Source: an uncultured bacterium
Lineage (GTDB): Bacteria; UBP4; UBA4092
NCBI GenBank assembly: GCA_963768165.1
Contig: CAVYHJ010000006.1
Span: 20,711 to 84,710 of the forward strand
Direction: 5' to 3'
Length of the DNA: 64,000 nucleotides
Shown: one piece after another, positions 7,182 to 33,894 of the stretch
Layout: the number at the start of each line of letters is the position of its first letter
Position numbering within the stretch: the stretch's first letter is position 1
Translations under genes and position numbers: made by a program
Notes under the pieces: model-generated
What the model was told of the DNA's origin: nothing
What the model saw: the letters and a program-made list of their open reading frames with translations, nothing else
Database searches by the model: none

Positions 7182-7835
7182 TTATTCCTCTATCTCTTCC
7201 GGCTCAATCTTTCCAAGGTTGCGATGGACTGTTTCCTGTATGACCTCCGGTGAAAATCCTTTTTGCGCCAAATATTGATAGATTTTCCTTTTTCTGACGC
7301 GTGGATCCCTTTCTTTACTGTACATTTTTTTCTTTAGCAAAGCTTTTTCTGCTAAAATCATCTGGTCGTCTGTAGACTGGAGTGACTTCAATAACTCTGT
7401 AATTAATTCCCTGTCAATTCCCTTGCGTAACAACTCTTGCCGAAGAACGACTGGACCACGAGGGCGGTGGGCGATTCTGTCTTCAATCCAGGACTGGGCA
7501 AACTCTGAGTCATTAAGAAGTTTTTTTGACTCCAAATCCGCAATTAATTTCTCAGTGATAAAAGTTTCATAGCCCTTTTGGGTCAGCTTGGCGCGGATCT
7601 CATGGCACGTATAAAGCCGGCGGGATAAAAGATTTAAAACGTATTGCCGCGCTCGTGAATAGTCTTCCCGTACAACAAGTTCTTTCAAATCCTTTGGGTC
7701 AATCTCCTGCCCCTCTTTTAATCTGGCGTGATAGAGAACTTCCTCATCCAGTCCTAGAAAAAATTCATTATCTACATAGATTGAATACCGTCTCGTTCGG
7801 CGCTTTTGAGGAGTAATGGACGTTATTACTGGCAT
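7182..7835 (-). CDS. recX: Regulatory protein RecX
   Basis: Directly downstream of recA; 'LLNDSEFAQSWI', 'RGPVVLRQELLRKGI', 'YLAQKGFS'. Confidence 0.92.
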   Translation of the reverse strand: MPVITSITPQKRRTRRYSIYVDNEFFLGLDEEVLYHARLKEGQEIDPKDLKELVVREDYSRARQYVLNLLSRRLYTCHEIRAKLTQKGYETFITEKLIADLESKKLLNDSEFAQSWIEDRIAHRPRGPVVLRQELLRKGIDRELITELLKSLQSTDDQMILAEKALLKKKMYSKERDPRVRKRKIYQYLAQKGFSPEVIQETVHRNLGKIEPEEIEE

Positions 7836-13418: not shown

Positions 13419-13550
13419 TCTTGTACGATAATTTTAATTTTAGGGATAGGAAAGGGGTAAAAAAGAAGTAACTATCTGATCGACTATATGTCAACTCAAG
13501 GCTATAGTGACTCTTGTCCAGGAAAATAAAAATACAAAAGGAGGTTGCTT

Positions 13551-16500
13551 ATGTTCAAAAAGAACAATACGTACAGATTTAATTTTTTGATGTATCTTCG
13601 TTGGGTGGTATTAACAGGAATCTTATCTCTGTGCTTGTCTCAGGAAAGTTTGGCGAGTATTCCCTTTCAAATCAATATCCAAGGACAAGTGACGGATACC
13701 ACGGGGAATCCGGTGCCGGATGGAAACTACACTTTCACGTTTAATCTTTACGCGACCTCCGCCGGAAGTACTACGGCTTATATATATACAGAAAGTACTT
13801 CCAACTATCCAGTACAAAGCGGAATATTCAGTTATCTTTTGGGAACCAATAATGCGTTAACCTTACCGTTTGGAGTTCCTTATTGGCTGGGTGTTCAATT
13901 CAATAATGATCCCGAAATGACTCCCCGGCAGGAGATCGTTTCGGTGGGTAATGCCTATAAAGCATGGAATTCGGATAGTGCGGGTATAGCGGTATATGCC
14001 ATAGTTGCTGGTACTGCCTCTACTGCCAATAATGCTACTAATGCAATCAATGCCACGAATGCCAATTCTGCGACATTCGCTTTTACGGCCAGCACCGCCA
14101 CGACTCTGATTTCGGCTTCGAATATTTTGGGCGGTACACTGGCGAATACACTGTTGGATCCCACCGTTGCACTACTGACGGCCAACCAGAACTATACCGG
14201 GATTAATACATTCGGAGTGGTCACGGCAACCGATACATGGTCGTTGGTAACGGTTCAATCGGCATCCAGCACCAAGAACATCTGGGTATTAGATACGGTC
14301 AATGCACCCTATGTCAATGCGACCGTTAATTATGCGATAACCGCTGGGAGTGTAACAAGCGCCACGAATGCAGTTTTTGCCTATACCGCCAGCACCTCTT
14401 CCACGGCAATTTATGCCCTAGTTGCCGGTAATGCCTCTACTGCCAATAATGCTACTAATGCAATCAATGCCACGAATGCCAATTCTGCGACATTCGCTTT
14501 TACGGCCAGCACCGCCACGACTCTGATTTCGGCTTCGAATATTTTGGGCGGTACACTGGCGAATACACTGTTGGATCCCACTGTTTCATTACTGACGGCC
14601 AACCAGAACTATACCGGGATTAATACATTCGGGGTAGTCACGGCAACCGATACATGGTCGTTGGTAACGGTTCAATCGGCATCCAGTACCAAGAACATCT
14701 GGGTATTAGATACGGTCAATGCACCCTATGTCAATGCGACCGTTAATTATGCGATAACCGCTGGCAATGTAACAAGCGCCACGAATGCAGTTTTTGCCTA
14801 TACCGCCAGCACCTCTTCTACGGCAATTTATGCCCTAGTTGCCGGTAATGCCTCTACCGCCGATAATGCTACTAATGCAATCAATGCCACGAATGCCAAT
14901 TCTGCGACATTCGCTTTTACGGCCAGCACCGCCACGACTCTGATTTCGGCTTCGAATATTTTGGGCGGTACACTGGCGAATACACTGTTGGATCCCACCG
15001 TTGCACTACTGACGGCCAACCAGAACTATACCGGGATTAATACATTCGGGGTAGTCACGGCAACCGATACGTGGTCGTTGATAACAGTTCAATCGGCATC
15101 CAGCACCAAGAACATCTGGGTATTAGATACGGTCAATGCACCCTATGTCAATGCGACCGTTAATTATGCGATAACCGCTGGGAGTGTAACAAGCGCCACG
15201 AATGCAGTTTTTGCCTATACCGCCAGCACCTCTTCCACGGCAATTTATGCCCTAGTTGCCGGTAATGCCTCTACCGCCGATAATGCTACGAATGCAGTCA
15301 ATGCCACCAATGCCAATTCTGCGACATTCGCTTTTACGGCCAGCACCGCCACGACTCTGATTTCGGCTTCGAATATTTTGGGCGGTACACTGGCGAATAC
15401 ACTGTTGGATCCCACCGTTGCACTACTGACGGCCAACCAGAACTATACCGGGATTAATACATTCGGAGTGGTCACGGCAACCGATACATGGTCGTTGGTA
15501 ACGGTTCAATCGGCATCCAGCACCAAGAACATCTGGGTATTAGATACGGTCAATGCACCCTATGTCAATGCGACCGTTAATTATGCGATAACCGCTGGGA
15601 GTGTAACAAGCGCCACGAATGCAGTTTTTGCCTATACCGCCAGCACCTCTTCCACGGCAATCTTTGCCTATACGGCCAGCACCGCCACAACTCTAATTTC
15701 GGCAGCCAATATTAGCGGAGGAACTTTAGCCGATGCCCGATTGTCTTCAAATGTACCTTTTCTGAATGCGAATCAGACTTTTACAGGAATTAATGTCCTA
15801 GGAATAGTTACTGCGAATAATACTTGGTCTCTAACCACCATTCAATCCGGACTTTCAACCAAATATATTTGGGCAACCGATACCTTAAATGGTCCCACGT
15901 ATATTATTTCCACTGTAGCGTATGCCTATCAATCGGGAACTACCAGTTTTGCCAACGGAAATGCAATCTTTGCTTATACCGCCAGTACTTCTTCCACGGC
16001 AATTTTTTCCTATACGGCTTCTACGGCTACCACTCTAACTTCGGCAGCCAACATCGCGGGAGGCACTCTGGCAGATGCACGGCTTTCTACAAATGTTCCA
16101 CTATTAAATGCGAATAATACTTTTAGTGTAGCTAATTATTTTTATGGTGTTACTATCAGCAGTAACTGGAGTCCGTCACAAGAAACATCCTTGGTTGTGC
16201 AAGGTTCCTCGAATGGTTCTGGTTGGCCCGGAATGATGAGTATTGGTGGGAATGGACAAGTTTCAGTTTCATATGGAGGTATTGGTGCGGGATTATTTGG
16301 TGGTATCGGTGCCAACAGTGGTGGATCACATACTTATCAAGCCGGTCCAGGAGGGGCGGGAGCATATCTTTCAGGTGGTCAAGGAGGAATTAATTATGGC
16401 GGTGGTAACGGCAATGGGGGAGTAGGGTTAATTGTACTTGGTGGATATGATTCCAGTACGACTACTCGTTCGAGTGCGATCCAAGCGACAGGAAATATCA

Positions 16501-16856
16501 CCTTGGGAACAGGGTACACGGTAGATGGAGTAGATGTCAGCCAGCAAAATGCCACTTGGCTGGGGTCTACCGCTTCACAAACCCTCACCGCTGCTTCGTT
16601 TTATGATGTCGTTACATCGGTCAATTATGTTAATGGAGGAGTCAATGTAGCATGGTCAGCACCATTCACCCAGCCGCCCTCAATTACAAGCGGAATTCTT
16701 AATTCCAGTTATTCAACAGTTACTTCGTATGATGTTCAATGGACATACTCATCCAGTACCGTCGGCACCTTTCGGGTTAACTATCATACTGGTGTAACTT
16801 CTGGTGAAGCTGCCACCAATGCAGTGACTGTAATGATTCATACCATCGGAAAATAA
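13551..16856 (+). CDS. Large secreted tail-fibre-like repeat protein (Thr/Ala/Asn/Ser-rich)
   Basis: RBS AGGAGGT at 13539-13545; signal peptide; N-terminal 'INIQGQVTDTTGNPVPDGNYTFTFNLY...YWLGVQFNNDPEMTPRQEIVSVGNA' domain typical of chromosomal tail-fibre-like proteins; 'GTLADARLSSNVPFLNANQTFTGIN' fibre repeats; Gly-rich and beta-rich C-terminus; no S74 chaperone domain recognised. Confidence 0.7.
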   Translation: MFKKNNTYRFNFLMYLRWVVLTGILSLCLSQESLASIPFQINIQGQVTDTTGNPVPDGNYTFTFNLYATSAGSTTAYIYTESTSNYPVQSGIFSYLLGTNNALTLPFGVPYWLGVQFNNDPEMTPRQEIVSVGNAYKAWNSDSAGIAVYAIVAGTASTANNATNAINATNANSATFAFTASTATTLISASNILGGTLANTLLDPTVALLTANQNYTGINTFGVVTATDTWSLVTVQSASSTKNIWVLDTVNAPYVNATVNYAITAGSVTSATNAVFAYTASTSSTAIYALVAGNASTANNATNAINATNANSATFAFTASTATTLISASNILGGTLANTLLDPTVSLLTANQNYTGINTFGVVTATDTWSLVTVQSASSTKNIWVLDTVNAPYVNATVNYAITAGNVTSATNAVFAYTASTSSTAIYALVAGNASTADNATNAINATNANSATFAFTASTATTLISASNILGGTLANTLLDPTVALLTANQNYTGINTFGVVTATDTWSLITVQSASSTKNIWVLDTVNAPYVNATVNYAITAGSVTSATNAVFAYTASTSSTAIYALVAGNASTADNATNAVNATNANSATFAFTASTATTLISASNILGGTLANTLLDPTVALLTANQNYTGINTFGVVTATDTWSLVTVQSASSTKNIWVLDTVNAPYVNATVNYAITAGSVTSATNAVFAYTASTSSTAIFAYTASTATTLISAANISGGTLADARLSSNVPFLNANQTFTGINVLGIVTANNTWSLTTIQSGLSTKYIWATDTLNGPTYIISTVAYAYQSGTTSFANGNAIFAYTASTSSTAIFSYTASTATTLTSAANIAGGTLADARLSTNVPLLNANNTFSVANYFYGVTISSNWSPSQETSLVVQGSSNGSGWPGMMSIGGNGQVSVSYGGIGAGLFGGIGANSGGSHTYQAGPGGAGAYLSGGQGGINYGGGNGNGGVGLIVLGGYDSSTTTRSSAIQATGNITLGTGYTVDGVDVSQQNATWLGSTASQTLTAASFYDVVTSVNYVNGGVNVAWSAPFTQPPSITSGILNSSYSTVTSYDVQWTYSSSTVGTFRVNYHTGVTSGEAATNAVTVMIHTIGK
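13995..15662 (+). repeat. Four tandem near-identical 417-bp (139-aa) intragenic repeats
   Basis: Marker AGATACGGTCAATGCACCC at 14291, 14708, 15125, 15542 (spacing exactly 417); a few SNPs between copies. Confidence 0.95.
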
Positions 16857-16868: not shown

Positions 16869-17435
16869 ATGAAAAAATTATTACTACTGTTTGTTTTATT
16901 GCCCTGCCTGTCATGGGCGCAGGTAACCTATAGTGGGGTGAGTATTGTTTCTATAATGACCACGAGAGATTCCCCACCTGAGATTACCGTGAGTGCGGGA
17001 TGTGTGTTCCGCGGTGTATCTTCCGCTCAAGCAAATCAATTGGGATTGATGGGTATTGGACGAGATTCAACCACCGAGTCAATAGTCACAACCTATAACG
17101 GATATGATCCACAAACCCAGCAAGCGTTTATTTTGATTCCCAATCAAACCTTTACCCTTCCCAATGATGGATTGACTTCGGACCAATATGTGACCTCGAT
17201 TCAAAATTATGTCGCGAAACGATATAAAATCTACGCCGACCAAATTACAGGCAGATTCTTCACGACTCCTAAGATAAAGAACAATATAAATTTGAATTCC
17301 TCGGTATCTCCTCAATATCAGGTGGAGAAATCGGAGAAGGAACACTACTCTTCCACTCAAACGGATAACGGCACAACGAATACGCCGAATGTTTTTTGGA
17401 ATAAAAATATCTTGGCATCCAATACGAAAGAATAA
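16869..17435 (+). CDS. Secreted hypothetical protein (fibre-Rhs operon)
   Basis: RBS AGGAGG; signal peptide MKKLLLLFVLLPCLSWA; 12 bp after the fibre gene stop. Confidence 0.7.
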   Translation: MKKLLLLFVLLPCLSWAQVTYSGVSIVSIMTTRDSPPEITVSAGCVFRGVSSAQANQLGLMGIGRDSTTESIVTTYNGYDPQTQQAFILIPNQTFTLPNDGLTSDQYVTSIQNYVAKRYKIYADQITGRFFTTPKIKNNINLNSSVSPQYQVEKSEKEHYSSTQTDNGTTNTPNVFWNKNILASNTKE

Positions 17436-17458
17436 AGTATTATATACGCGAGTTGCCA

Positions 17459-17487
17459 GTAGAGACGTTCCACCAGAACGTCTCTAC
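17459..17487. repeat. REP-like hairpin GTAGAGACGTTC-CACCA-GAACGTCTCTAC
   Basis: 12-bp perfect stem with the same arm ends as the 28-bp palindrome family; just upstream of the rhs RBS. Confidence 0.85.
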
Positions 17488-17509
17488 TATTCATGGAGGT
17501 ATAACGGTT

Positions 17510-20500
17510 ATGTATAAGAAAAAGTGGTTCTCTCGACTATTTATCGGTATATTCTTTTTTTTAATTGTATATTTATCTTTTTTACAAAACATATATGCAC
17601 TGGCGATTGATGGTGTTGCCTACGACGACTCTGCGTTTAATGGTGGGAATAGTAGTGTTTGCACTTCTATTTGGATTCATGTAATAGGTATTAATACAAA
17701 TGCTGCTGTTAATGGAGGATTAACTATTACTGTTGATGGCCAAGGAACTAACAGTGATACATTAGGAAGCTTGGATACATGTTATGATCTTTATACGAAT
17801 GATGAAATAGATACGTATAATCGGTTATGTCAATATAGTTATTGTTTTGTTACGGCTTCGTATACGGATGATTCTGGAAATATCACTACTTACCCTTGTG
17901 AACAAAGTAACACAAATGGTATGTATTGGACTATTTATGGTGTTACTGATTCTACTATTTTGATTTGTAATCCTGCTCAAGGTTGGGCTTGTGGCAGTGA
18001 CGCTGATACTAATCCTGACGATTTAAATACTTCTCAAGCGTGCTTTACTGGAAATGATCTTTGGTTGAATGTATTCTCTGGAGGTAATCCAGGGTTTTAC
18101 AATGGACCCCATACAATAACGGTAACACAATTTTATGCGACTTGGACATCATTCCTGACCGATGCAGGGACCTATCCATGTCAGGGTTTTGAAGGTGTTA
18201 CTGTAAATTATTATTTACTCTCTAGTGACGCTGTATCTTCAACAATAGATTTTGAAAATACACTTCCCGGAGTTAACGCCTGTTCTCAATCCGTTGACTC
18301 CTCTATTGAGCCTACATTCTGTGAATTGGGAGTTTGTATATATCCCTTTTGTTTTGCTAAAAACAAAATATATACTCTACAAAATGATATTACCATGTCG
18401 GGAACCCCTGGATTATCAATGACCCGGGCCTATAATCTGCGTCAACCTTTTAGTGATTACAGTGTAGCAAACGGGTTTTATGAAATGGGCTATGGATGGT
18501 GGTCGGAGTATTCTCAATGCATTGAAGACAATTATGGATGGGTCTACTATTTTGATGAAACCGGCAGGAAAATTTATTTTCAAAGGACGACTCCTTATTT
18601 CTCAGATTATCAACCAAATCTAACAGAATACTACTGCCAGGAGACGGAATACGTTCTTACAAAAACTAATTCCATGGAAGAGGAGGTTGTGGGAGATACG
18701 CTTGGACAGCAAAATCAAGGATATCAGTATACTTTAATAAAAGGTAACGGCTGTTGCGGTGGTGGATATAAAACGTTGACGTTCGATAAACTTGGAAGAA
18801 TAACGCAGATTGCAGATTCTAATAATAATACAATTAATATTGATTATTGTCTTAACCATGATCAATTTGGTTGTCTTACTGAAGACTGGACATATACACC
18901 GCTTACAACACAAATCTATAATTCCAATGGACAAGTTATTCACCTAATTAGATATAATATCGGAGATGAAACAACTAAAATTCAGTATGCGGTATGTTAT
19001 AACACCAATGATCAAAATTTATCGATTTTGACTGTAAAGTATAATTATGACGGTTATGACAATTTAACCAGTGTTATCAACCAAGGAGGGCAAACTGCCA
19101 GTTTTATTTATTCGGATGCGGCGAATCATCAACTTTCACAATATATAAATATCAATGGAGAAACCACAAATTGGGTTTTTGATACCAATGGCGTTTGTAC
19201 GAATACCAATGTCAATGGAATCTTCAGTCTATTTACATATAATTTTCAACCTACGAACAATCTTACCATTCAGGCAGATACGGCTAATAAACAGGTCATT
19301 TATCATTGGCTGAATAACGGAATTGTTACTGGGAAAGACTATCCCGATAATTCTTCAACACAACAATTCCCCGACCAATACAATAACATCACTACGGCCA
19401 TCAATGAAAATGGCGATACAACGAATATGTTTTATGACGCATACAATAACCTTACGACCGCTATTGATTATGCGGGGAATACCACCCAATATTTTTATGA
19501 TGATAATTTTGAAGTATGCACCACCTTGATCAATGCCGCAGGACAGCAATATAACTTTTTACTGGATGGAAACGGGAATATTACCACCATGATTTTCCCG
19601 GATTCCTCCCAATGGTACGCCTATTACGACAGTTCCGGGAATTTAACGACATTGGTCAATCCCTTGGGCTATGCTTCGTATTACTTCTATGATGTGTATG
19701 GGAACCCCTCGGGGTTTCAAGATCCTCTGGGGAATCAGAGTTTTACTTTTTATGACAGTTTTGGAAATCTAACCGCCACCATCAATGCGTTATCCCAACA
19801 AGTGGAATTCCAATATGATACTCTTGACCGGGTTACAGCGGTGCTAATGCCCTTGGGTCGCAATTCGTATCTTTCGTATAATAACACCTTCAATCCCATC
19901 TCCGCCATAGACCCCATGGGACATCAAACCCAGTTCCAGTACGATAGTTTGGATAGACTCACGAGTACTTTGTCCGCGGCATCCACCTCTATTTCCAAAT
20001 ATTATGACAACTATAGCCTGTTAACCACGGGAATGGATGAAAATGGCAATCCAACTTTTTATCAATATGACAGTTGTAGTAGATTAATTCAAGGTATAGA
20101 TGCCGCAGGGAATTATAGTCAGGTTTATTACGATGCCGCCAGCCAGGTGACCTCGGCACGTAAACCGGATGGAACTTTATTACCCCGTTGGTACGATGTT
20201 TTGGGACAGGTTACCGCCTATGTTCATGGAGAAACCCAAGGATTAGTCACTACTTTTCAATGGTACGACGTGTTGGGGAATTTAACGACGGTCTACGACA
20301 TCAATCAAGGTTATACTCAATATTACTATGACCTCATGGGACGGATTACCACCAAATGTTATTCCACTTATACGGTTTCCTATTTTTATGATGTATTGGG
20401 ACGAAAGACGGCATATCTTGACCCGCAGGGGAATCTTTTCACGTATACCTATGATGCGGACAATCACCTGATTTCCCTAAACAATTGGGCGAACCAGACG

Positions 20501-22300
20501 ACCTCTTATAGTTATGACGCCTTGGGAGAGGAGACCGCAGAGTATTATCCCAACGGTACGATAATGAATTATTATTATGATGTTTTGGGTGAGCTGACAT
20601 CCATCCAATTTTCTTATGCCCCCGTGGGAGAACAGAATGCGCAGTATTATGCCAATGGTAAGAGAATGAATTATTCCCATAATGCCTTCGGGAGACTGAC
20701 ATCCATCCAAATTTCAAACAACTATGCTTATGGACAAACTTCTTCCATACTGTTGAATGCGGGGAGTCAGGAAACCAGTACGAATTATGGGTTGCAACTG
20801 GCCATCGGAGATACAGTAATTGGCCAATCCTCCTCGGCAAATTATACCGTTCATTGGGGACTGGGACAATTTAATTATATGAATCCTTCCACTCTTAATT
20901 ATATAAATCCATCTACCTTGCAAGTGTTGGCGTATGCGTATGATTCTGTGGGGAATAGGACTTTGCAAGTAGACATCTCCAATAATTCCACCTTCTATTA
21001 TTACGATACTTTGTATCGTCTCACGACCGAGCAACGGATTGGAACCAATGCCTACACGCGAAGCTATACCTATGACCCTGCCGGGAATCGGACCCAGATG
21101 CTGATTCTGTCCGATAGCACATCTACTACCACATATATCCTGAATAACTTGAACCAAATCACCGCTTCCACGACCAATGGGGTGGAAACCCTTTACTCCT
21201 ATGATGCCAATGGGAACTTGCTCTCCAAAGGAAGTACGTCCTATTTGTGGAATAAAGACGACCAACTCATCACCGTGTTCTTGAGTAACGATACGGTGAG
21301 TTATCTCTATGATTCCTTTGGACGAAGGTCCCAGAGGGTACATGGGAATTCGACTACAAACTATCAATTGGAAGGGTTGGATACACAAATTGAATTAGAC
21401 AACAGCACAGTCCAGCGAACCTATACTCTATCGGGAGGACTCACCGGACAAATCATTTCCGTTCGATATAACGGGGATGATTACTTCTATCACTATGATT
21501 CTTGGGGAAATGTTCTATTTATTACTGATTCTTCAGGAGCTATTGTTTCTTCCTATATCCAGGAAAGTTTCGGAAATGTTCTTGATAACCTAATTGGGTT
21601 TCCTATACAACATAATTTACAAAGTGAATATCAAGAGGGTCCTCCAAATTATTATCACTTAAATACGGGGGAACTGGACCCGGTCACAGGTCTCTACCAT
21701 TGTCAATCTCGTTGGTATGATCCAACCTCTGGAACATGGATTTGTAACGATTATTATAAATATAGTAGTTATAAATCTAATTCTAATAATAATCCTAATT
21801 CATTAATTTTAAAGCCAGTACCTTTAGAATTAGATCCACAACTTATTGACCTTATAATAGCATTTTCTATGCCGGGAGGAAACGAAGGTAAAGCGGGCGA
21901 AGGGTTGTTGTCTAAAATATGCAAAATAAAATATATACCGATTTGGGGTAGAACTTTTCTGGGGGAAGGAACTCTTGGGGTGGCCAAAGAGGGTTATGGA
22001 TTTACATCCTTTGAGGCTCTTAAAAAATATTTAGGGGATCCTGGACCGAATAATGTATGGCATCATATTGTGGAACAACGGGAGCCAAATGTATTACGAT
22101 TTAAACCATGTAATATTCATAATACTAAAAATGCAATTGCTGTAAGTAAGGAAATTAATCAAAAAATTGCCGATTATTTTTCTTCAAAACAACCCTTTAC
22201 TGAAGGAATGACTCTTAGAGAGTGGTTAAATAATCAGCCCTATGAGGAACATTACAAACGGGGAATAGAAGCATTAAAAATTTATGGTGTGTTAAAATAG
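17510..22300 (+). CDS. Rhs/YD-repeat polymorphic toxin with signal peptide and C-terminal HNH-like nuclease
   Basis: GGAGGT RBS then ATG 17510 (MYKKKWFSRLFIGIFFFLIVYLSFLQNIYALA); DUF6531-like 'NDITMSGTPGLSMTRAYN'; many YD repeats; 'LDPVTGLYHCQSRWYDP'; tip 'WHHIVEQ...IHNTKNAI' resembles the HH-type nuclease toxins paired with DUF2019. Confidence 0.9.
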   Translation: MYKKKWFSRLFIGIFFFLIVYLSFLQNIYALAIDGVAYDDSAFNGGNSSVCTSIWIHVIGINTNAAVNGGLTITVDGQGTNSDTLGSLDTCYDLYTNDEIDTYNRLCQYSYCFVTASYTDDSGNITTYPCEQSNTNGMYWTIYGVTDSTILICNPAQGWACGSDADTNPDDLNTSQACFTGNDLWLNVFSGGNPGFYNGPHTITVTQFYATWTSFLTDAGTYPCQGFEGVTVNYYLLSSDAVSSTIDFENTLPGVNACSQSVDSSIEPTFCELGVCIYPFCFAKNKIYTLQNDITMSGTPGLSMTRAYNLRQPFSDYSVANGFYEMGYGWWSEYSQCIEDNYGWVYYFDETGRKIYFQRTTPYFSDYQPNLTEYYCQETEYVLTKTNSMEEEVVGDTLGQQNQGYQYTLIKGNGCCGGGYKTLTFDKLGRITQIADSNNNTINIDYCLNHDQFGCLTEDWTYTPLTTQIYNSNGQVIHLIRYNIGDETTKIQYAVCYNTNDQNLSILTVKYNYDGYDNLTSVINQGGQTASFIYSDAANHQLSQYININGETTNWVFDTNGVCTNTNVNGIFSLFTYNFQPTNNLTIQADTANKQVIYHWLNNGIVTGKDYPDNSSTQQFPDQYNNITTAINENGDTTNMFYDAYNNLTTAIDYAGNTTQYFYDDNFEVCTTLINAAGQQYNFLLDGNGNITTMIFPDSSQWYAYYDSSGNLTTLVNPLGYASYYFYDVYGNPSGFQDPLGNQSFTFYDSFGNLTATINALSQQVEFQYDTLDRVTAVLMPLGRNSYLSYNNTFNPISAIDPMGHQTQFQYDSLDRLTSTLSAASTSISKYYDNYSLLTTGMDENGNPTFYQYDSCSRLIQGIDAAGNYSQVYYDAASQVTSARKPDGTLLPRWYDVLGQVTAYVHGETQGLVTTFQWYDVLGNLTTVYDINQGYTQYYYDLMGRITTKCYSTYTVSYFYDVLGRKTAYLDPQGNLFTYTYDADNHLISLNNWANQTTSYSYDALGEETAEYYPNGTIMNYYYDVLGELTSIQFSYAPVGEQNAQYYANGKRMNYSHNAFGRLTSIQISNNYAYGQTSSILLNAGSQETSTNYGLQLAIGDTVIGQSSSANYTVHWGLGQFNYMNPSTLNYINPSTLQVLAYAYDSVGNRTLQVDISNNSTFYYYDTLYRLTTEQRIGTNAYTRSYTYDPAGNRTQMLILSDSTSTTTYILNNLNQITASTTNGVETLYSYDANGNLLSKGSTSYLWNKDDQLITVFLSNDTVSYLYDSFGRRSQRVHGNSTTNYQLEGLDTQIELDNSTVQRTYTLSGGLTGQIISVRYNGDDYFYHYDSWGNVLFITDSSGAIVSSYIQESFGNVLDNLIGFPIQHNLQSEYQEGPPNYYHLNTGELDPVTGLYHCQSRWYDPTSGTWICNDYYKYSSYKSNSNNNPNSLILKPVPLELDPQLIDLIIAFSMPGGNEGKAGEGLLSKICKIKYIPIWGRTFLGEGTLGVAKEGYGFTSFEALKKYLGDPGPNNVWHHIVEQREPNVLRFKPCNIHNTKNAIAVSKEINQKIADYFSSKQPFTEGMTLREWLNNQPYEEHYKRGIEALKIYGVLK

Positions 22301-22317: not shown

Positions 22318-22665
22318 ATGAAAAATTTAGATAAATTAATTAATAAATATATTGAAGCTGCTATCCTGCAAGGAAAGGCAACGAATGAGGCAAAATCTAA
22401 AACAGGAAATCAGCAATATACTATTATTTCAAAGATTTATCATCAATTAAAAAATGATCCAGAAGTTGGATTATTACCTTTGGTTAAATTGTTAAATCAT
22501 TCCAATGATTATGTAAAATTATGGGCAGCCGCACAAACATTATCAATAGAACCTAAAAAAGCCGAGAAGGTACTTCTGGAGCTAAGCGAAAAACCAAGAT
22601 TTCTAGGGTATAATGCTAAAATGACTTTGGAGGAATGGAGAAAAAAAGGGGAACTGAAGTTTTAA
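22318..22665 (+). CDS. DUF2019-like immunity protein, copy 1 (probable cognate)
   Basis: Directly after the toxin; 'SKTGNQQY...LVKLLNHSNDYVKLWAAA...AEKVL...AKMTLEEW'. Confidence 0.8.
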   Translation: MKNLDKLINKYIEAAILQGKATNEAKSKTGNQQYTIISKIYHQLKNDPEVGLLPLVKLLNHSNDYVKLWAAAQTLSIEPKKAEKVLLELSEKPRFLGYNAKMTLEEWRKKGELKF

Positions 22666-22666
22666 T

Positions 22667-23008
22667 ATGATGAATTTTGATAGGCTAATCAATAAATTTA
22701 TTAATACCGCAATTTTGCATGGAGAAGCATCTAACGAAGGAAAATATATAATTGCATACCGACAATATAAAGTTGTTGTAAATATTGTTAATAAACTAAA
22801 AAATGATTCAATGGTTGGACTTTCTCCATTAATTCCACTATTAAAACATCCCAATGATTATGTAAAGTTAGCCGCAGCTGCTTATACTTTTTCCATAGCG
22901 ACACAAAAGGCTGAGAAAGTACTCATAGAACTCAGTGAAAAACCAAAAACATTAGGGCTTAATGCCACAATCATCTTAAGAGAATGGAAGAATGGAAACA
23001 TGCATTAA
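22667..23008 (+). CDS. DUF2019-like immunity protein, copy 2 (divergent)
   Basis: Paralogue of copies 1 and 3: 'LLKHPNDYVKLAAAAY...AEKVLIELSEKP...LREWK'. Confidence 0.78.
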   Translation: MMNFDRLINKFINTAILHGEASNEGKYIIAYRQYKVVVNIVNKLKNDSMVGLSPLIPLLKHPNDYVKLAAAAYTFSIATQKAEKVLIELSEKPKTLGLNATIILREWKNGNMH

Positions 23009-23018
23009 ATATTAAGCT

Positions 23019-23369
23019 ATGAGTATAAGAAATTTAGATAAATTAATTAATAAATATATTGAAGCTGCTATCCTGCAAGGAAAGGCAACGAATGAGGCAA
23101 AATCTAAAACAGGAAATCAGCAATATACTATTATTTCAAAGATTTATCATCAATTGAAAAATGATCCAGAAGTTGGATTATTGCCTTTGGTTAAATTGTT
23201 AAATCATTCCAATGATTATGTAAGATTATGGGCTGCTGCACACACGTTATCAATCAATCCCGAAAAAGCTGAGAAAGTACTTATGGAACTCAGTGATAAA
23301 AAACCATTTTGGGGGTTTAATGCTAAAATGACTTTACAGGAATGGAAAAAGGGAAGCTTAAATTTTTAA
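23019..23369 (+). CDS. DUF2019-like immunity protein, copy 3
   Basis: First ~190 bp nearly identical to copy 1; 3' third diverged. Confidence 0.8.
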   Translation: MSIRNLDKLINKYIEAAILQGKATNEAKSKTGNQQYTIISKIYHQLKNDPEVGLLPLVKLLNHSNDYVRLWAAAHTLSINPEKAEKVLMELSDKKPFWGFNAKMTLQEWKKGSLNF

Positions 23370-23431: not shown

Positions 23432-24211
23432 GTGATACAACAATTTTATATTCTGAAACCCGAAGGGGATGAATTATTTGGGACGAAATTTGCCTATGGA
23501 CAGATGGGAACGCCGTATTCATTAGGAGATTGTGAGTATTGTCCAAAGTGTCATTCAGCGGTTAGTATGTTGTTATGGCTTCCGCTCCATCGCTTAGAGT
23601 TATCTTCCTCGAAACCAGAGAAATGGGGTGATTTCTTATTTGGAGCAGATTATCACCCCTTTGTTTCAGCAAAATTTAAAAGTATCTTTGAGCAAGAAGA
23701 ATTGAAAGGGTTGATAACGTTCCATCCACCAGCAAAGATTATTAAACTGGGGACTAAAAGTCCTAAGGATGTTATCGAGTCTTTACCGGTTTATCATATG
23801 ATGGAAATTCCTTGTGAGGGAGCAGAAATTGATATTGAAGCATCCCACATGGTATACAACAAGCCATCCAATTGTGATAAATGTAAACAATCAAATCGGA
23901 TTTTTAAAAGTCATAAAGGATTAATAATTAAAGAGAATTCCTGGATAGGGTTGGATATCTTTCGACCATGGGGTGGTTTGAATTATATTTTTGTTACCGA
24001 AAGATTCAAATCTGTATTAGAAAAATACAAACCGACTAACTATTTATTATATCCCGCAGATCAATGGTGGGAAGAAGAACCCAATTTGAATCCCTTTTAT
24101 ACGCATGAAGATGCTAAAAGGGAAAAGGAACTAGCGGAACAATTTAGAAGAAGTATGAAAGATGCAAAAATTACAATAACCCTTCCAAAAGGATTTCAAA
24201 ATAAAACGTAG
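23432..24211 (+). CDS. Orphan putative immunity protein (Imm11/DUF1629-like, two CxxC motifs)
   Basis: 'CPKC...LWLP', 'WGDFLFG', 'CDKC', 'LDIFRPWGG..IFVTERF' resemble immunity proteins found with HNH/AHH toxins; position in the array. Confidence 0.55.
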   Translation: MIQQFYILKPEGDELFGTKFAYGQMGTPYSLGDCEYCPKCHSAVSMLLWLPLHRLELSSSKPEKWGDFLFGADYHPFVSAKFKSIFEQEELKGLITFHPPAKIIKLGTKSPKDVIESLPVYHMMEIPCEGAEIDIEASHMVYNKPSNCDKCKQSNRIFKSHKGLIIKENSWIGLDIFRPWGGLNYIFVTERFKSVLEKYKPTNYLLYPADQWWEEEPNLNPFYTHEDAKREKELAEQFRRSMKDAKITITLPKGFQNKT

Positions 24212-24336: not shown

Positions 24337-25077
24337 ATGGATCTTGATGAAGAAATAAAGAAAAGTTTAAAACATTCTGAGGATTTGAAAAAGTCTGGAT
24401 TAGGTCCAAAAGACGTCCGAAAGTATATTCGGAAACATTTTAAACCTTTTGCCAAAGAATATGGTTTCCAATTTCGGACCCAAATTACACTATATCGGAT
24501 CCATCAAAATGTACTTCATTCACTAGGGTTTGAGAATCTCTCCAGCGGCTTTACCTGTCAAGTTGCGATTCAACCATTATATTATCCTGGCGATTCATAT
24601 TTTTTTAATTTCGGTGATAGAATCAGTAACTTTAAAGTTCATCTTTTAGAAACTTGGGATTATCTATATCCAGAGAAGGGTGTTCTTGAGATATTAGAGC
24701 TAGTGAAACGAGATGTACTCCCTTGGTTTGACAAATTTGGACACCCCGCAGGTATCATAGATTTTGTTGAAAATTATAAGGAGTATAAAAAAGAATATGT
24801 GTATTGTAGAATCTCACCAGATGCTCGTGAAGAGAGTGCCTGTTTTAGTTATCTATATCTAGGACAATATCAAAAAGCGACTGAATATTTAAAAAAAGGT
24901 ATTGTGTTATTGAAACAAATTATACAAGAACATCCTGAATGGTCAGTTGACTGGCATGGGAAAGAGTTAGCTATGTATGAACATTTATTGGGTTTAATTC
25001 AAAATGATCCTCCTAAAATAAAACCTCAATTAGATGAGTATATTCAATATACCAAGAAAAATTTGAAAATTGAATAA
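24337..25077 (+). CDS. Orphan putative immunity protein (DUF4304-like)
   Basis: 'FKPFAKEYGF', 'QPLYYP', 'LPWFDK' and a helical TPR-like tail; AT-rich; position in the array. Confidence 0.5.
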   Translation: MDLDEEIKKSLKHSEDLKKSGLGPKDVRKYIRKHFKPFAKEYGFQFRTQITLYRIHQNVLHSLGFENLSSGFTCQVAIQPLYYPGDSYFFNFGDRISNFKVHLLETWDYLYPEKGVLEILELVKRDVLPWFDKFGHPAGIIDFVENYKEYKKEYVYCRISPDAREESACFSYLYLGQYQKATEYLKKGIVLLKQIIQEHPEWSVDWHGKELAMYEHLLGLIQNDPPKIKPQLDEYIQYTKKNLKIE

Positions 25078-25134: not shown

Positions 25135-27203
25135 CCCGTTGGTATGATGTTCTAGGACAAGTTACCGCCTATGTTCATGGAGAAACCCAAGGGTTAGTCA
25201 CTACTTTTCAATGGTACGACGTATTGGGGAATTTAACGACGGTCTATGATATCAATCAGGGATATACCCAATATTACTATGACCTCATGGGACGGATTAC
25301 CACGAAATGCTATTCCACTTATACGGTTTCCTATTTTTATGATGTATTGGGACGAAAGACGGCATATCTTGACCCCCAAGGGAATCTTTTCACGTATACC
25401 TATGATGCGGACAATCAACTGATTTCCCTAAACAATTGGACAAACCAGACGACTTCGTATAGTTATGATGCCTTGGGAGAAGAGACCGCAGAGTATTATC
25501 CCAACGGTACGAGAATGAATTATTACTACGATGTTTTGGGGGAACTGACATCCATCCAATTTTCTTATGCCCCCGTGGGAGAACAGACCACTATGAGAAT
25601 GAATCCTTACCATAATGTCGTCGGGGGACCGACATCCATCCAATTTTCAAACAACTATGCCTATGGACAAACTTCTTCCATACTGTTGAATGCGGGGAGT
25701 CTGGAAACCAGTACGAATTATGGGTTGCAACTGGCCATCGGAGACACGGTGATTGGCCAATCCACCTCAGCGAATTATACCGTTCATTGGGGACTGGGAG
25801 AATTTAATTATGTGAATACATCCACTATACAGGTGCTGGCGTATGCCTATGATTCTGTGGGGAACCGGACCTTGCAAGTAGACCTTTCTAATAATTCTAC
25901 CTTCTATTATTACGATATCTTGTATCGGTTAACCACCGAGCAAAGAATTGGAACCAATGCCTATACGCGGATCTATACCTATGACCCTGCCGGGAATCGG
26001 ACACAGATGTTGATTCTATCCGATAGCACATCTACTACCACCTATATCCTGAATAACTTGAACCAAATAACCGTTTCCACGACCAATGGGGTGGAGACTC
26101 TTTATTCCTATGATGCCAATGGGAACTTACTCTCCAAAGGGAGTACTTCGTATCTGTGGAATAAAGACAACCAACTCATCTCCGTGTTCTTGAGTAACGA
26201 TACGGTGAGTTATCTCTATGATTCCTTGGGACGAAGGTCGCAGAGAATACATGGGAATTCGACTACAAATTACCAGTTGGAAGGGTTGGATACCCAAGTT
26301 GAATTGGACAATAGCACAGTCCAGCGAACCTATACCCTATCAGGAGGACTCACTGGACAAATCATCTCCGTCCGACACAACAATGCCGATTATTTCTATC
26401 ATTACGATGCCATCGGAAACGTATTATTCATCACCGATGCATCGGGAGCCATTGTTACTGCCTATACCCAGGAAGGGTTTGGAAATGTCTTGGCAACCCT
26501 GAGCAACTTTAGCAACTCTTACCACTTAACCACCAAAGAACAAGACCCGGTAACAGGATTATATTACTTTGGTGCACGATGGTACGACCCGCAAGTGGGA
26601 AGATGGTTATCTAGAGAGCCGACAGGACAAGATGGGCCGAATTTGTATCGTTTTGGATTTAATAATCCGGTTAATGGTTTTGACCCGAATGGGCTATCTT
26701 ATATAGAATTTTTTAGGGGGGATGATATGATAGGCACATTGTATGTTTTTGATAAAGACGATAATCTTATACGTTCTATACCTGCGGGAAATCAGACTTG
26801 CGGAGTAAACCCCAAAACAAAGAAAAAATTTACCCCTCTTCCAGACGACACCTATACAATTACAGGAAGGCCAAGGAAGGCGTATTCAAAAAACAAAAAA
26901 GATATAACCTTAAATGGAAAACTTGGGGCATATGTAATACCTATTAATGATTATACAGATGAAGATGGTGTTTTACATGATGCATTAAGAATCCATGGAG
27001 GAAGAGGAAATTTTACTTTTCCACATTGTACAAATGGTTGTATTCGTATTTCAAACGATGACGCAAAATGGTTTTATGATAATTTTGGCGTTAAAAGTGG
27101 ACAATATTATAATGACCAATTAGAATATATTAGCATAGAAACACTAGATGATCCTGATTTTCAATTTCTTGTAAATGGGAATGCGGAATTTATAAAAAAT
27201 TAA
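25135..27203 (+). pseudogene. Silent 5'-truncated rhs cassette (orphan toxin module) with L,D-transpeptidase-like/Tlde1-like tip
   Basis: 25135-~26400 is a close copy of 20184-~21490; frame opens after TAA at 25113-25115 with no ATG or RBS; canonical 'NPVNGFDPNGL' junction; tip 'LRIHGG...TNGCIRIS'. Confidence 0.85.
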
Positions 27204-27308: not shown

Positions 27309-28124
27309 ATGAAAAAGATATTTTTTACGTTGTCATTGTTTCTTTTTGTTAATTCAATTGTATTAGCTGTTGATAAAAAAGTACTTTCCAATGATACCTC
27401 CCATTTTTCTATCGATTTAATAGATCCCTATATTACAAGTGGTGATTTCGAGAAAAGACTAAGTGATTTGTCCGAAAGTACCTCAGCAACAAACCGGCGG
27501 TTCTCTTATTTTGTACTGAATGGAATGTTGAATTATGCCGATATAGCGACTAATAATTTTGAAAAAGAAAATGATATAACCAATAAAAGAATGTTGGCTT
27601 TAATAGGGTATAGGATGTATCCACAATCTAGAATATGGAAGAGTAGATTGTTAAAATATTTCCCTAGAACAGAAAAAGATATACGAGAAACATTTTGTAG
27701 TTATGAAGGAAATTTTATGTATGACCAAGAACAGAATTATTTTGAATTTTTGGGAAATATTGCCGTTACCCAAAGTGATTCTGAAGTATTATACATTATA
27801 TTAGAAGATTATGACCAATTGAGTAATTCTGCTGAAATTATAGATATAGTAGGAGGATTATTATTTGATATAAGTAATAAATCACCGAAACTATTTTTAA
27901 GAACACTTAAGAAGTTACCAAACTATAAACAAGGTTCTATTCTTGTGAATTTTGTTTATGGTCCAGATTCTCCTGGTATATCTTTTGTATGTCCCTTTAC
28001 TAAAGAATTAGAACGATTGGTTAAAACTAAAGATAAAGAACTTTCCTCATATGCCGCTGTTGTACTGAAAAAAATACAGAATATTGTTCAAGAACATGAA
28101 AAGGAAGAAAAGAAAAACAAATAA
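27309..28124 (+). CDS. Secreted putative immunity protein for the Tlde1-like tip
   Basis: Signal peptide MKKIFFTLSLFLFVNSIVLA; follows the toxin tip; no family recognised. Confidence 0.6.
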   Translation: MKKIFFTLSLFLFVNSIVLAVDKKVLSNDTSHFSIDLIDPYITSGDFEKRLSDLSESTSATNRRFSYFVLNGMLNYADIATNNFEKENDITNKRMLALIGYRMYPQSRIWKSRLLKYFPRTEKDIRETFCSYEGNFMYDQEQNYFEFLGNIAVTQSDSEVLYIILEDYDQLSNSAEIIDIVGGLLFDISNKSPKLFLRTLKKLPNYKQGSILVNFVYGPDSPGISFVCPFTKELERLVKTKDKELSSYAAVVLKKIQNIVQEHEKEEKKNK

Positions 28125-31026: not shown

Positions 31027-33894
31027 CTATTTAGTTCCATCATTTATAATCTTAATTTCCTCATCTGTCAAGCCGTACAATTCATAAACCAATTGGTCAA
31101 TTTGGTTATCAGTGGTGGTGATTTGGCGTTGGAGGGATTCTTTGTCATGGGGTGTTTTGGCTTTGGGTAATTGTTGATTTAATTCCAGCATTCGGTCTAC
31201 CAGTTTCACCATTCTGTCATGACGGAGGTCCTCCTTTTTCATAACAGGGATTGGCAAACGCCTTAATTCTGCAAGTGTGGTTTGACGAAAATCATCTTTT
31301 GTAGCAATAGAAGAAGTATTAATATACAAATAAGAGATCAATCTGCTATTTATAATACCTAATACAAAAAGCGGGTTCCACTCTGGTTTTGTAATAATAA
31401 ATGGATTAATATCTTTCTTGAAAACCATCTTTTGGTCTATGTAGGCAGCCATCAACCTGTCTTGTCTATTAATGACTCTTCTAATTAAGATTTTGGGATT
31501 CTTTTCATAAAACACTTTCAAAGACGGTTTGTCATTAAGGTCTGTATAAAGTATTTGATTAAATTCCAAGAGGTATCTGTAAACTTGACCGCTTTCAAGG
31601 AATGGATATAAATTCTTGCTTCCCTTTTTATTTTCTTTCTCAAATCTATTGCCAGCTAAACCTTGAGTTGACATAGTAAAACTTCCTAAAGATACATATT
31701 TTGAGTTATCTAACAGGCGATTAATAATTGTTTGTGTTTCAGGCTCCAGGACAACCTTATAATCTGGTGCTTTAACAAGTTCTGTTGGCACTTCAGTATA
31801 TTTAAGATTCCCAAGATTAGGAGATTTCTCCTTTTTTGGGAAGCGAAAAATAGAATATTTGTTTACCGGGCTTCCCGATAAGATATAAATACCTGTATCA
31901 ACATAGGCGTTTTTGAATACATCAAAAGGCAAGTTGATAAGAGTTGTAACTCCTGTTTTAGTAAACATGTATTTTCTAAGCTTATTAAAGTTTTCACCTG
32001 TCCACCAAGTTAAGGAAGATATGAAGCCCAAGCGACCAGAGGATTTAAGCTTTTTCAAAAGTGCCAAAATAAAAATAATAGAAGAATCATACTTTCTTTC
32101 TAATTCAGAATAATGATCTTGGTAATATATTCTTTGTTCATCAGTCATCATTTCTATTGGAATATACGGTGGATTTCCGATGACAGCATCAAACCCACTA
32201 GATTTCATGATGTCGGGGAATTCGGTGTTCCAGTCGAAGACGTTGATACGATATTTTTCTTCTTCATCAATGAGGAGTAATTGTTGATTGTCATAGAAAT
32301 CGGGACCGATGAGGGAGTTACCGCATTTGATATTTTTGCCGAGGTCGGGGAGGGCGCGTTCATGGAGTAATTGTAATTGTTTTTCTAACGTTTGTTCATT
32401 TTCTCCTTCGAGGACTTTGAGGAGGAGGGAGAGTTTGGTGACTTCAACGGCTTGGGTGTCAATATCCACGCCATAGATATTATTGAGAAGAATTCTTTTT
32501 CGTTCCTGCGTGGTCAAACGCCATCCGCCTGTTGCGGTTTGATGAACGGCAGAGGATTTTTCGGGGTTATTGTCCATATAATATTTCAAATGCCAATCGA
32601 GGAGATATTGATAGGCACCTAAAAGAAAAGAACCGGAACCGCAGGCGGGGTCAAGGATTTTTAATTTGGCGACCTGTTTGGGGGTAGAGACGTAACATGT
32701 TACGTCTCTACGGTTAGGGTCATCACCCAATAATTTTCCTACGGTATTTTTCACAATGTAATCCACGATATAGGTCGGGGTATAGTAGACGCCTCCGGCT
32801 TTTTTGACTTCGGGTTTATCATCAACAACGGCATGATGGGCATCGGTTAAACGAATGACTTTGCCGAGGAATTGTTCGTAGACTTGTCCGAGAATATCGC
32901 TGGGAAGAACTGAGAATTCATAAGGACTGTCGGGGTAATATAGTGAAGTAATGATTTCCTTGAGAGGTTTGTCGTCTATTTTTAGATGAAGGGTCAATTC
33001 ATCGGGTTGTTCAGACCGGTCTTTTTCTTTGGAGAAATGAAATAAGCCGGAATTATAGCGTTCATCGGCACGTTCAAAGTATTCACAGAGACGCGGATAA
33101 ACTCTTTCCCCATTAGTCAAAGCTCTTAATTTACCATACTCTTCAATGCTCCGGTCTTCGCAAATTCTGAGGAAGATAATGCGGTCAATGGTGCACTGAA
33201 CGGCGAAATTAAGGTCTCGGGGAGATAGTTTAAGATTTCGTAGAGCAATATTTTTGGCTAAGGAGTCCCGCCAAGATTCAATTTCCTCAAGAAAAGCATC
33301 GTCCACCTCAGCAGTGCCTTTTTTGGCTTTGGTGGATTCAACGTATTTATCGAAAGAACCTTTGAGAATGGCATCGAGGGAAAAAGTGGAATAAATCTCC
33401 TCCCAATTTTTAAGGTATTCTTCATAGGTCAGGTATTTAATTCGAGCGGTGGCAGGTTTATCCGATATCACAGGACGGATGCGGGTGTCATAGACAACAA
33501 ATTCTTTAAAGTCGGTAAGGATACTTAACGGAAGTTTGGCAGACCACGCATAACGGCGAAGTTGAAACGCGGGACTGATGTCGTCTTTGAGATTGACGGA
33601 CGGGCGTTTGGCTTCAAGGAAGAATTTACTGGTTCCCCCGATTCGAAAACAATAATCCGGGGCTTTGGTTTCCGTACCGACTTTGACAGCGGGTTCGTGA
33701 ATGACATATTTATACGCTTCAGCCAATCCTTGTTTATTGTCCATGTCCCAGCCCAGCAGGGTAAAGAAAGGGTTAATGAATTCCTGTCGAACCTGTGTTT
33801 CGTTATATTGCCCGGAGGTATAGGAATCTTTATTCCGGTCAAAACGTTCGACCAGATCAATTAATTCTTTTGGCGTATCCAGTATCCCTGACAT
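31027..33894 (-). CDS. Type IIG (Eco57I-like) fused restriction endonuclease/N6-adenine methyltransferase
   Basis: N-terminal nuclease 'PDYCF...FFLEAKRP'; motif I 'ILDPACGSGSFL'; motif IV 'VIGNPPY'; TaqI_C-like tail. Confidence 0.9.
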   Translation of the reverse strand: MSGILDTPKELIDLVERFDRNKDSYTSGQYNETQVRQEFINPFFTLLGWDMDNKQGLAEAYKYVIHEPAVKVGTETKAPDYCFRIGGTSKFFLEAKRPSVNLKDDISPAFQLRRYAWSAKLPLSILTDFKEFVVYDTRIRPVISDKPATARIKYLTYEEYLKNWEEIYSTFSLDAILKGSFDKYVESTKAKKGTAEVDDAFLEEIESWRDSLAKNIALRNLKLSPRDLNFAVQCTIDRIIFLRICEDRSIEEYGKLRALTNGERVYPRLCEYFERADERYNSGLFHFSKEKDRSEQPDELTLHLKIDDKPLKEIITSLYYPDSPYEFSVLPSDILGQVYEQFLGKVIRLTDAHHAVVDDKPEVKKAGGVYYTPTYIVDYIVKNTVGKLLGDDPNRRDVTCYVSTPKQVAKLKILDPACGSGSFLLGAYQYLLDWHLKYYMDNNPEKSSAVHQTATGGWRLTTQERKRILLNNIYGVDIDTQAVEVTKLSLLLKVLEGENEQTLEKQLQLLHERALPDLGKNIKCGNSLIGPDFYDNQQLLLIDEEEKYRINVFDWNTEFPDIMKSSGFDAVIGNPPYIPIEMMTDEQRIYYQDHYSELERKYDSSIIFILALLKKLKSSGRLGFISSLTWWTGENFNKLRKYMFTKTGVTTLINLPFDVFKNAYVDTGIYILSGSPVNKYSIFRFPKKEKSPNLGNLKYTEVPTELVKAPDYKVVLEPETQTIINRLLDNSKYVSLGSFTMSTQGLAGNRFEKENKKGSKNLYPFLESGQVYRYLLEFNQILYTDLNDKPSLKVFYEKNPKILIRRVINRQDRLMAAYIDQKMVFKKDINPFIITKPEWNPLFVLGIINSRLISYLYINTSSIATKDDFRQTTLAELRRLPIPVMKKEDLRHDRMVKLVDRMLELNQQLPKAKTPHDKESLQRQITTTDNQIDQLVYELYGLTDEEIKIINDGTK
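32684..32711. repeat. 28-bp palindrome copy inside the R-M gene
   Basis: Identical to 7849-7876; read in frame as ...RRDVTCYVST... Confidence 0.92.

Follow-up and report, generated by a model that had tools for sequence, protein, structure and literature searches.

We analysed 64,000 nucleotides from an uncultured bacterium of the UBP4 lineage (contig CAVYHJ010000006.1 of GenBank assembly GCA_963768165.1; hereafter the window, with positions counted from its first letter), in which a gene for an Rhs/YD-repeat toxin lies downstream of a gene for a fibre resembling the mosaic adhesive trimer (MAT) fibres of Bdellovibrio. Within the YD shell of this toxin, and again in an orphan Rhs cassette farther downstream, we found a segment that very probably belongs to a widespread family of ~45-residue modules, named the NY module in this analysis, whose other members mostly form the N-terminal end of small secreted proteins. 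This family is tightly linked at the gene level to MAT-type fibre genes. The features on which the argument turns are as follows.

Positions 13545-16856, plus strand: MAT-like fibre gene, 1103 aa, with a signal peptide, an N-terminal IQGQVTDTTGNPVPDGNYTFTFNLY domain, a repeat stalk and a tip without an S74 domain
Positions 13629-14051, plus strand: fibre N-domain, aa 29-169 of the fibre, related to the conserved N-terminal domain of Bdellovibrio MAT fibres
Positions 17453-22300, plus strand: Rhs/YD-repeat toxin gene, 1615 aa from TTG or 1596 aa from the ATG at 17510, which the database version P0001 uses
Positions 20756-20872, plus strand: NY module copy 1, 39 aa (aa 1102-1140 of the Rhs open reading frame), translated as NAGSQETSTNYGLQLAIGDTVIGQSSSANYTVHWGLGQF
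Positions 25224-27203, plus strand: orphan Rhs C-terminal cassette, 659 aa, with the last ~440 core residues common to the main gene
Positions 25689-25805, plus strand: NY module copy 2, within the orphan cassette, NAGSLETSTNYGLQLAIGDTVIGQSTSANYTVHWGLGEF

An initial annotation of the window, made from the letters alone, had given the coordinates and translation of the first copy exactly; its span for the second, 25688-25804, was one base out of frame and is corrected above. The fibre gene ends 596 nt upstream of the Rhs gene on the same strand, with one small open reading frame (ORF) of 188 aa between them, 12 nt from the fibre gene and 17 nt from the Rhs gene. The main Rhs protein runs from an N-terminus like a Sec signal peptide through a Cys-rich N-region, a DUF6531 plug (aa 305-376) and the YD shell to a putative C-terminal toxin domain. 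It matches Pfam RHS_repeat (PF05593) in eight stretches (E 2.9e-52) and TIGR01643 (E 4e-33), and its solved relatives in the PDB include Tse5 (8cp6), 8h8a, 7q97 and bacterial teneurin-like proteins, with E-values from 1e-29 to 1e-16. Family scans of the main Rhs found no PAAR, VgrG or type IX secretion system (T9SS) sorting domain, and the Rhs-associated core model (Rhs_assc_core, TIGR03696) scores 22.1 bits, below its cut-off of 32.5, at a site that reads '...LELDPQLI', not DPxGL.

The NY module in the Rhs consists of a pair of S-x-N-Y-x-[LV] units in tandem, with a spacing of 19 residues and fixed glycines. When this tandem pattern was back-translated, its matches in the window were the two NY copies only, and 100 dinucleotide-preserving shuffles gave 0.00 matches. 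We also scored the window with a hidden Markov model (HMM) trained on 105 family members, all from outside the window: copy 1 reached 30.9 bits (E 7.6e-9) and copy 2 reached 32.5 bits (E 2.4e-9), against at most 3.8 bits for the remaining window ORFs, at most 2 bits for the other repeats of the same Rhs and a best domain of 0 bits or less over 65,649 aa of other Rhs proteins. The initial description of the segment as non-YD is borne out by this gap. The tandem motif is likewise absent from all 32 Rhs homologues examined (at most 28% identity). Because the search pattern was derived from the Rhs segment itself, we separately scored the 37 columns that the pattern leaves unfixed, where the segment obtains 5.6 bits against a shuffle null of -19.9 ± 8.1, a score reached by 283 of 200,000 shuffles (p ~1.4e-3); the 20,303 other 46-aa stretches of the window average -33, with a maximum of 6.2. 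The segment is real, non-random and distinct from YD repeats.

To describe the family elsewhere, we ran the back-translated pattern NY.L....G....G.....NY.[LVF]..G. against 185,579 species genomes, where it matched at least 119 loci. Some 105 of the matches listed plainly form one family, with typical sequences such as WQVISSGATDGSSTNYHLRGTVGQIAVGTGSSENYGLGHGYWQ, SDSINIGGGLSSSTNYSLESSIGEVATGPSDSTNYSLRAGYQQMQE and WFTIDGGGGTSAGGNYSLSGTIGQPDAGVMTGGNYSLTGGFW and a consensus of approximately [W]..I..GG..S.S.NY.L..T[IV]GQ...G..S.S.NY.L..GF. The matches listed come mostly from Patescibacteria, with others from Ignavibacteria, Zixibacteria, Verrucomicrobia, Planctomycetes, Chloroflexi and further groups, and no lineage stands out as the donor of the module in the Rhs. 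The motif family that the initial annotation placed beside QG..TD-type fibre genes thus does exist, at no fewer than those 119 loci and in many phyla. The NY module is widespread and largely undescribed: Pfam has no family for it or for the fibre N-domain, and no solved structure contains either. A protein search with a motif profile of 65 sequences returned 27 short fragments only, of the Verrucomicrobia and Chloroflexi type, and a word-index protein search with the motif alone gave no candidates.

What follows the module differs between lineages. In the Candidate Phyla Radiation (CPR) and some other groups it is joined to a domain of ~190 aa, giving PamT-like proteins; in PamT, the predicted pilus-tip protein, this domain is Ig-like. 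In Ignavibacteria, Bacteroidota and candidate division KSB1 it is combined with a C-terminal T9SS sorting domain, often with little between, so that partners in the Fibrobacteres-Chlorobi-Bacteroidetes (FCB) group are laid out as signal peptide, NY module and T9SS sorting domain, the last being their only Pfam match. Dockerin-like repeats occur in one Ignavibacteriales module protein, and LamG-like regions in some proteins from Planctomycetes and Peribacteria. The Chloroflexi module proteins (P0036, P0039-P0042) are only 62-79 aa long; a leader precedes their NY module, and a '[VI]YLP[LMV][VI].[KR]' tail forms the C-terminus. This common layout of the module plus the lineage's own anchor suggests the module as the working part, with the task of holding something at the surface.

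Several observations on these proteins stand apart from the argument. The Chloroflexi tail looks like an undescribed sorting or anchoring signal. Three giant proteins, of at least 1763 to 2417 aa, occur in metagenome-assembled genomes (MAGs) labelled Gammaproteobacteria (L057:1-7251, minus strand; L133:2-5290, plus strand; L024:6265-7998, minus strand). Their module lies ~190 aa from the C-terminal end with a PamT-like domain behind it, so very large passengers can also be joined on the N-terminal side of the module. At 34 CPR loci (for example L019:5506-7527), a conserved membrane protein of ~520-670 aa adjoins the PamT-like gene; it has an FN3-like part, a Pro-rich stretch, transmembrane helices and a CarboxypepD_reg-like segment, and it matched no named Pam component.

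Comparison with curated models places the Rhs segment in the same family. The NCBIfam model NF058579 (CPR_pilus_PamT) matches a 97-aa piece of the Rhs with an E-value of 5.1e-5 (22.8 bits) over profile positions 29-77 of 241, and it matches the orphan copy at E 3.1e-4; for other family members the values are 5e-13 (CPR), 1.4e-4 (an Ignavibacteriales partner) and 2.8e-6 (a Verrucomicrobia-type fragment). The Rhs is not itself a PamT, as no Ig-like domain follows the module and its score, like those of the other family members, is far below the model's equivalog cut-off of 240 bits, and the NF058579 matches are best read as marking a shared N-terminal module, not PamT orthology. Judged by sequence, we consider membership of the Rhs segment in the NY module family very probable.

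The window fibre was characterized in the same manner. A Pfam scan of its gene gave nothing meaningful, and the NCBIfam model NF053851 (Bdello_MAT_N) matches the fibre N-domain with an E-value of 2.9e-7 (30.4 bits, cut-off 60) over profile positions 4-135 of 162; the fibre of locus L001 is matched at E 1.6e-8. The window fibre N-domain appears to be a homologous domain outside the curated Bdellovibrio subfamily. Behind it, Tandem Repeats Finder reports 4.0 copies of a 417-nt (139-aa) repeat at 13995-15668 with 97% matches, which implies recent expansion or ongoing homogenisation of the stalk. Searching with the fibre N-domain, we found 18 loci (16 distinct) at 34-54% identity to the window domain, in MAGs of Bacteroidota, Ignavibacteria, Chlorobi, candidate division KSB1, Fidelibacterota and Myxococcales. 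Beside the fibre gene, 11 of the 16 distinct loci have a gene for a secreted module protein, usually as the next downstream gene of the same strand, with an overlap or a gap of less than 160 bp. The mature N-terminus of these partners (for example VAWSSFNAGSGIPQSSTSAIKNAVGQNFVGTSQSTNSKVGSGFL) aligns gap-free to the Rhs segment, and an HMM made from nine FCB-type partners (without 'NY') gives the two Rhs ORFs the top two ranks among the 1104 window ORFs, exactly on the segment, with weak scores of 8.0 and 6.5 bits (E 0.15 and 0.2).

The association also holds in the opposite search direction. A narrow HMM detects a fibre N-domain gene in 33 of the 119 motif-found loci listed, a lower bound because each locus was taken as a block of fixed 8-kb length without centring it on the match. 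Taking both directions together, fibre and module genes occur together in at least 46 loci, usually adjacent and on the same strand, with the module gene directly downstream of the fibre gene and often overlapping it at FCB-type loci, and 1-2 kb upstream of the fibre gene on the same strand at CPR-type loci. The fetched fibre relatives end with or without a phage-type S74 chaperone domain. Building a motif HMM and listing the neighbours, as the initial annotation had proposed, thus places motif genes in strong co-location with fibre N-domain genes, and the NY family is tightly linked to MAT-type fibre genes. The window contains no canonical small partner gene; only the Rhs and the orphan cassette carry the NY module there, and the Rhs therefore occupies the partner slot downstream of the fibre. 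Separately, we note that an archaeon MAG (DATDSO010000004, locus L095) has a motif-like ORF and a weak fibre N-domain match (E 1e-5) at 3308-4141 and 7501-7577 of the same 8 kb; this is a genuine pair in an archaeon or else the result of faulty binning.

Two further features adjoin the module in the main Rhs gene.

Positions 20714-20878, plus strand: possible extended NY module, aa 1088-1142, adding a degenerate upstream NNYAYGQTSSILLNAG element that MAFFT aligns to the family's first SYSIDWFTIDGGGG strand
Positions 20873-20920, plus strand: octapeptide tandem duplication NYMNPSTL/NYINPSTL, immediately 3' of copy 1 and single in the orphan cassette by pairwise alignment

We considered whether the first element of the family, 'S.NY.I..D.IN.GG', is present in the Rhs as well and set this aside for want of statistical support, as an HMM of the upstream element gives no match in the Rhs. 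When the protein is aligned with Rhs homologues by MAFFT, about two to three YD hairpins stand opposite the NY segment and the surplus is only ~13-21 residues; this alignment thus points to a replacement of cage-wall hairpins more than to a free-standing insertion. The term 'insert' in the initial annotation is accurate for these extra residues and misses the hairpins that are partly replaced. Between the two copies, 36 of 39 residues are identical, with indels of 6 aa upstream and 8 aa downstream, the latter being the octapeptide duplication. The shared core (main Rhs aa 941-1380 versus orphan aa 1-430) is ~93% identical overall. Codon analysis of the motif between the copies gave a synonymous rate (dS) of 0.20, a nonsynonymous rate (dN) of 0.035 and a dN/dS of 0.17, compared with 0.04 for the upstream flank, 0.10 for the downstream flank and 0.13 for the whole shared core. 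The module is under purifying selection in both copies. Special conservation of the module is rejected on these numbers: its near-identity beside indels was correctly noticed at the outset, is not exceptional in such a core and adds nothing to the argument.

Structure prediction leaves the matter where it stood. An AlphaFold2 model of Rhs aa 300-1480, computed from an alignment with 17 further sequences, has a mean predicted local distance difference test (pLDDT) score of 64.7 and a predicted template modelling (pTM) score of 0.37, and the YD shell flanking the segment is modelled as regular hairpins at pLDDT 70-88. The AlphaFold2 runs, including those on the segment given below, neither support nor refute the reading in the initial annotation of the motif as a possible beta-hairpin tag that docks to the fibre, and they do not separate a place in the wall from a protruding one. 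The initial annotation held that folding as ordinary YD strands would speak against docking; this is not a clean refutation, because the module, as a substitute for wall hairpins, could belong to the wall and yet present a specific outer docking face.

To account for these findings, we propose that the NY module, elsewhere the N-terminus of a fibre partner, has been built into the wall of the Rhs cage in place of about two YD hairpins, and that it would be the element held by the conserved N-domain of the fibre. On this model, a single complex at the cell surface would unite the Sec-exported cage with the trimeric fibre; the variable fibre tip would locate the target cell, and the toxin would be carried in the cage. 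We put this docking model forward tentatively as the likeliest of the readings, with chances somewhat short of even; direct binding, the stoichiometry of the complex and the delivery role are what we infer. The interpretation in the initial annotation is supported in part: for the motif family, for the place of the Rhs segment in it and for its link to fibre genes. The broader claim, that the NY module is a general adaptor bound by MAT-type N-domains, from CPR pilus tips to T9SS-anchored stubs in FCB bacteria, and was captured by this Rhs, is possible and in our judgement doubtful.

Several results weigh against the docking model. It rests on a single case, with no second Rhs bearing an NY module among 1.84 billion representative proteins or 137 fetched loci: an exhaustive phmmer search of those representatives with the 91-aa segment and flanks returned only the window's own two proteins, the other seven matches being repeat-inflated artefacts, and the fetched loci contain no YD-repeat ORF. 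The module lies at the mature N-terminus after a signal peptide in 132 of the 144 module-bearing ORFs, whereas the Rhs copy sits within the protein, without the conserved leading Trp and without a significant first element, and a free N-terminus could matter for function; the 12 family ORFs with more than 150 residues before the module include no YD protein. The curated matches to both module and fibre (NF058579 and NF053851) are far below their cut-offs. Fibre and module genes are not one to one in some loci, with two to three tandem fibre genes of common N-domain and only one to two module genes at L121, L122 and L131. In the cage model, residues 790-857 (Rhs aa ~1089-1156) form short irregular strands at pLDDT 34-56, and the isolated 97-aa piece, folded by AlphaFold2 with 27 family fragments aligned, reaches a mean pLDDT of 48.9 and shows no motif strands.

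Among the alternatives, the one that survives best is that the NY module is a general surface-retention or ligand-binding element, recognizing a glycan, S-layer or envelope component and not a fibre, so that fibre proximity would reflect shared cell-surface operons only and the module in the Rhs would keep the cage on the producer or bind a ligand on the target cell. The variety of C-terminal domains that accompany the module (PamT-like Ig, LamG, dockerin-like repeats and the adhesin-like giants of L057 and L133) is in keeping with such a role, as are the unequal gene counts and the presence of a fibre gene in the same 8 kb at only 33 of the 119 motif loci listed, although the uncentred blocks make this figure an underestimate. 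However, the FCB and Chloroflexi partners already have an anchor, in the form of the T9SS sorting domain or the C-terminal tail, which would make a second one redundant, and tight adjacency with overlapping same-strand genes recurs across very distant phyla. We regard a general retention role as unlikely.

We consider it improbable that the module is instead a recognition or assembly signal for a shared export factor (a PamC/PamD-like chaperone or an outer-membrane translocon) whose route the Rhs has borrowed. The CPR module does belong to PamT, part of a pilus assembled by chaperone-assisted donor-strand exchange, and an Rhs that has a Sec signal peptide and lacks PAAR, VgrG and a T9SS sorting domain needs a route to the surface. 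Yet neither the comparison of CPR with FCB loci nor the window yielded a Pam-like chaperone or any other shared third gene, and an export signal is normally found at a protein end, whereas the module is buried at residue ~1100 of a folded cage. Very improbable, finally, is convergence of a diverged YD hairpin pair with a purely structural role: homologous Rhs proteins do have hairpins at this place with a surplus of only 13-21 residues, both repeat types are ~20-residue beta-hairpin units, AlphaFold2 shows no separate domain and the module is no better conserved than its flanks, but the 31-32 bits of the two copies set against every YD repeat of the 32 other Rhs and of the protein itself, the match to the independent curated model NF058579 and the shuffle test on non-pattern columns all argue against it, and convergence would leave the coincidence with an adjacent MAT-type fibre gene unexplained.

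The remaining genes of the locus are listed here.

Positions 16869-17435, plus strand: secreted ORF of 188 aa, with a signal peptide and without an NY module, flanked by the fibre gene and the Rhs gene
Positions 22318-23369, plus strand: three paralogous DUF2019 genes (Pfam PF09450, E 6e-7 to 5e-9)
Positions 23432-24211 and 24337-25077, plus strand: two further small ORFs, between the DUF2019 genes and the orphan cassette

The 188-aa ORF has no Pfam or NCBIfam family and no homologue in the 137 fetched loci, among which the N-terminal region of the Rhs has no relatives either. The C-terminal ~135 aa of the main Rhs (21890-22297) are without a Pfam match; they contain 'VWHHIVEQ', which may be WHH/HNH-type nuclease-like, with Pfam silent. 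From their place after the toxin domain, the three DUF2019 genes are probably immunity genes. The orphan cassette matches Pfam RHS_repeat and has a canonical Rhs-associated core (TIGR03696, 67.2 bits) ending in 'FDPNGL'. Its C-terminus is a YkuD-like domain of L,D-transpeptidase fold (26745-27089, Pfam E 2.2e-6), which suggests a putative peptidoglycan-targeting toxin. Directly 3' of the cassette, an ORF at 27309-28124 that belongs to no family may be the immunity gene of the orphan toxin. Farther 3' of the Rhs region lie an Eco57I/MmeI-like type IIG restriction-modification gene (31027-33894, minus strand) and a DDE transposase gene (34055-35557, plus strand), consistent with a variable genomic island.

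The delivery of most Rhs toxins is understood in terms of the type VI secretion system or of Tc-type complexes. The combination seen here of a Sec signal peptide and a fibre-partner module, without PAAR or VgrG, suggests another way to mount and target the cage. If the docking model is true, a Sec-exported toxin cage rides on a receptor-binding fibre, which would be a previously undescribed, secretion-system-independent targeting of an Rhs toxin. Should binding fail to be confirmed, the analysis would still leave an odd, well-documented variant of Rhs together with an unannotated and widespread surface-protein module.

The module bears on two published systems as well. Caulton et al. 2024 (PMC10769870) described 21 Bdellovibrio MAT fibres and stated that what holds their conserved N-domain on the cell is unknown. 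The module genes beside MAT-type fibres in many phyla are a concrete candidate for this role, and if binding is confirmed the long-sought fibre anchor would be identified; the smallest module proteins, in which the module is joined to a T9SS sorting domain or to a short tail, are simple test objects. Troman et al. 2026 (bioRxiv 10.64898/2026.03.03.709456) determined the structures of the PamA/PamB pili from a CPR bacterium, proposed PamT as a single-domain tip pilin from AlphaFold models and reported a 'tail fibre-like protein' consistently near the pam operon; they called the Pam pilins CPR-exclusive and gave no separate role to the N-terminal stretch of PamT. On the present evidence this N-terminal part belongs to a module family that reaches far beyond CPR bacteria. 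Our literature searches found no paper linking the PamT N-terminal stretch to the fibre N-domain, to non-CPR bacteria or to Rhs toxins.

With the Rhs/YD-repeat polymorphic toxins (Tse5 8cp6, RhsA, Photorhabdus Rhs1 7q97, the TcB-TcC cocoons and teneurin-like 9pt5), the window Rhs shares the YD shell, the DUF6531 plug, a putative variable C-terminal toxin with candidate immunity genes after it and, farther downstream, an orphan cassette that bears an alternative toxin. It differs from them in having a Sec-type signal peptide and not PAAR/VgrG coupling, in a non-YD module within the shell that none of the 32 homologues or solved relatives has, in adjoining a MAT-like fibre gene and in lacking the canonical DPxGL end in its main copy. 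In concept, Tc toxins (TcA plus TcB-TcC), phage-tail-like or fibre-assisted toxin delivery and the CdiA filaments of contact-dependent inhibition (CDI) also couple a toxin, in a YD cocoon, to a separate targeting component; no TcA-like or TpsB/CdiB-like gene is present here, coupling would run through a ~45-residue module and a fibre N-domain, and the likeness is one of analogy only. Like MAT fibres, the window fibre comprises, by its sequence, a signal peptide, a conserved beta-rich N-domain of ~110-140 aa, a repetitive stalk and a presumably variable tip, but it is a distant relative outside Bdellovibrio, and no MAT is known to be linked to an Rhs toxin. As for PamT, the Rhs segment aligns to the first ~50 residues of the PamT model after the signal peptide and the pam operon likewise co-localizes with a tail-fibre-like gene, whereas the window Rhs lacks the truncated Ig-like pilin domain and carries its module internally. 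The Rhs scaffold, MAT fibres and PamT were thus each already known separately; what is new is the extent of the module family beyond CPR bacteria, its systematic pairing with MAT-type N-domains and its presence inside an Rhs shell.

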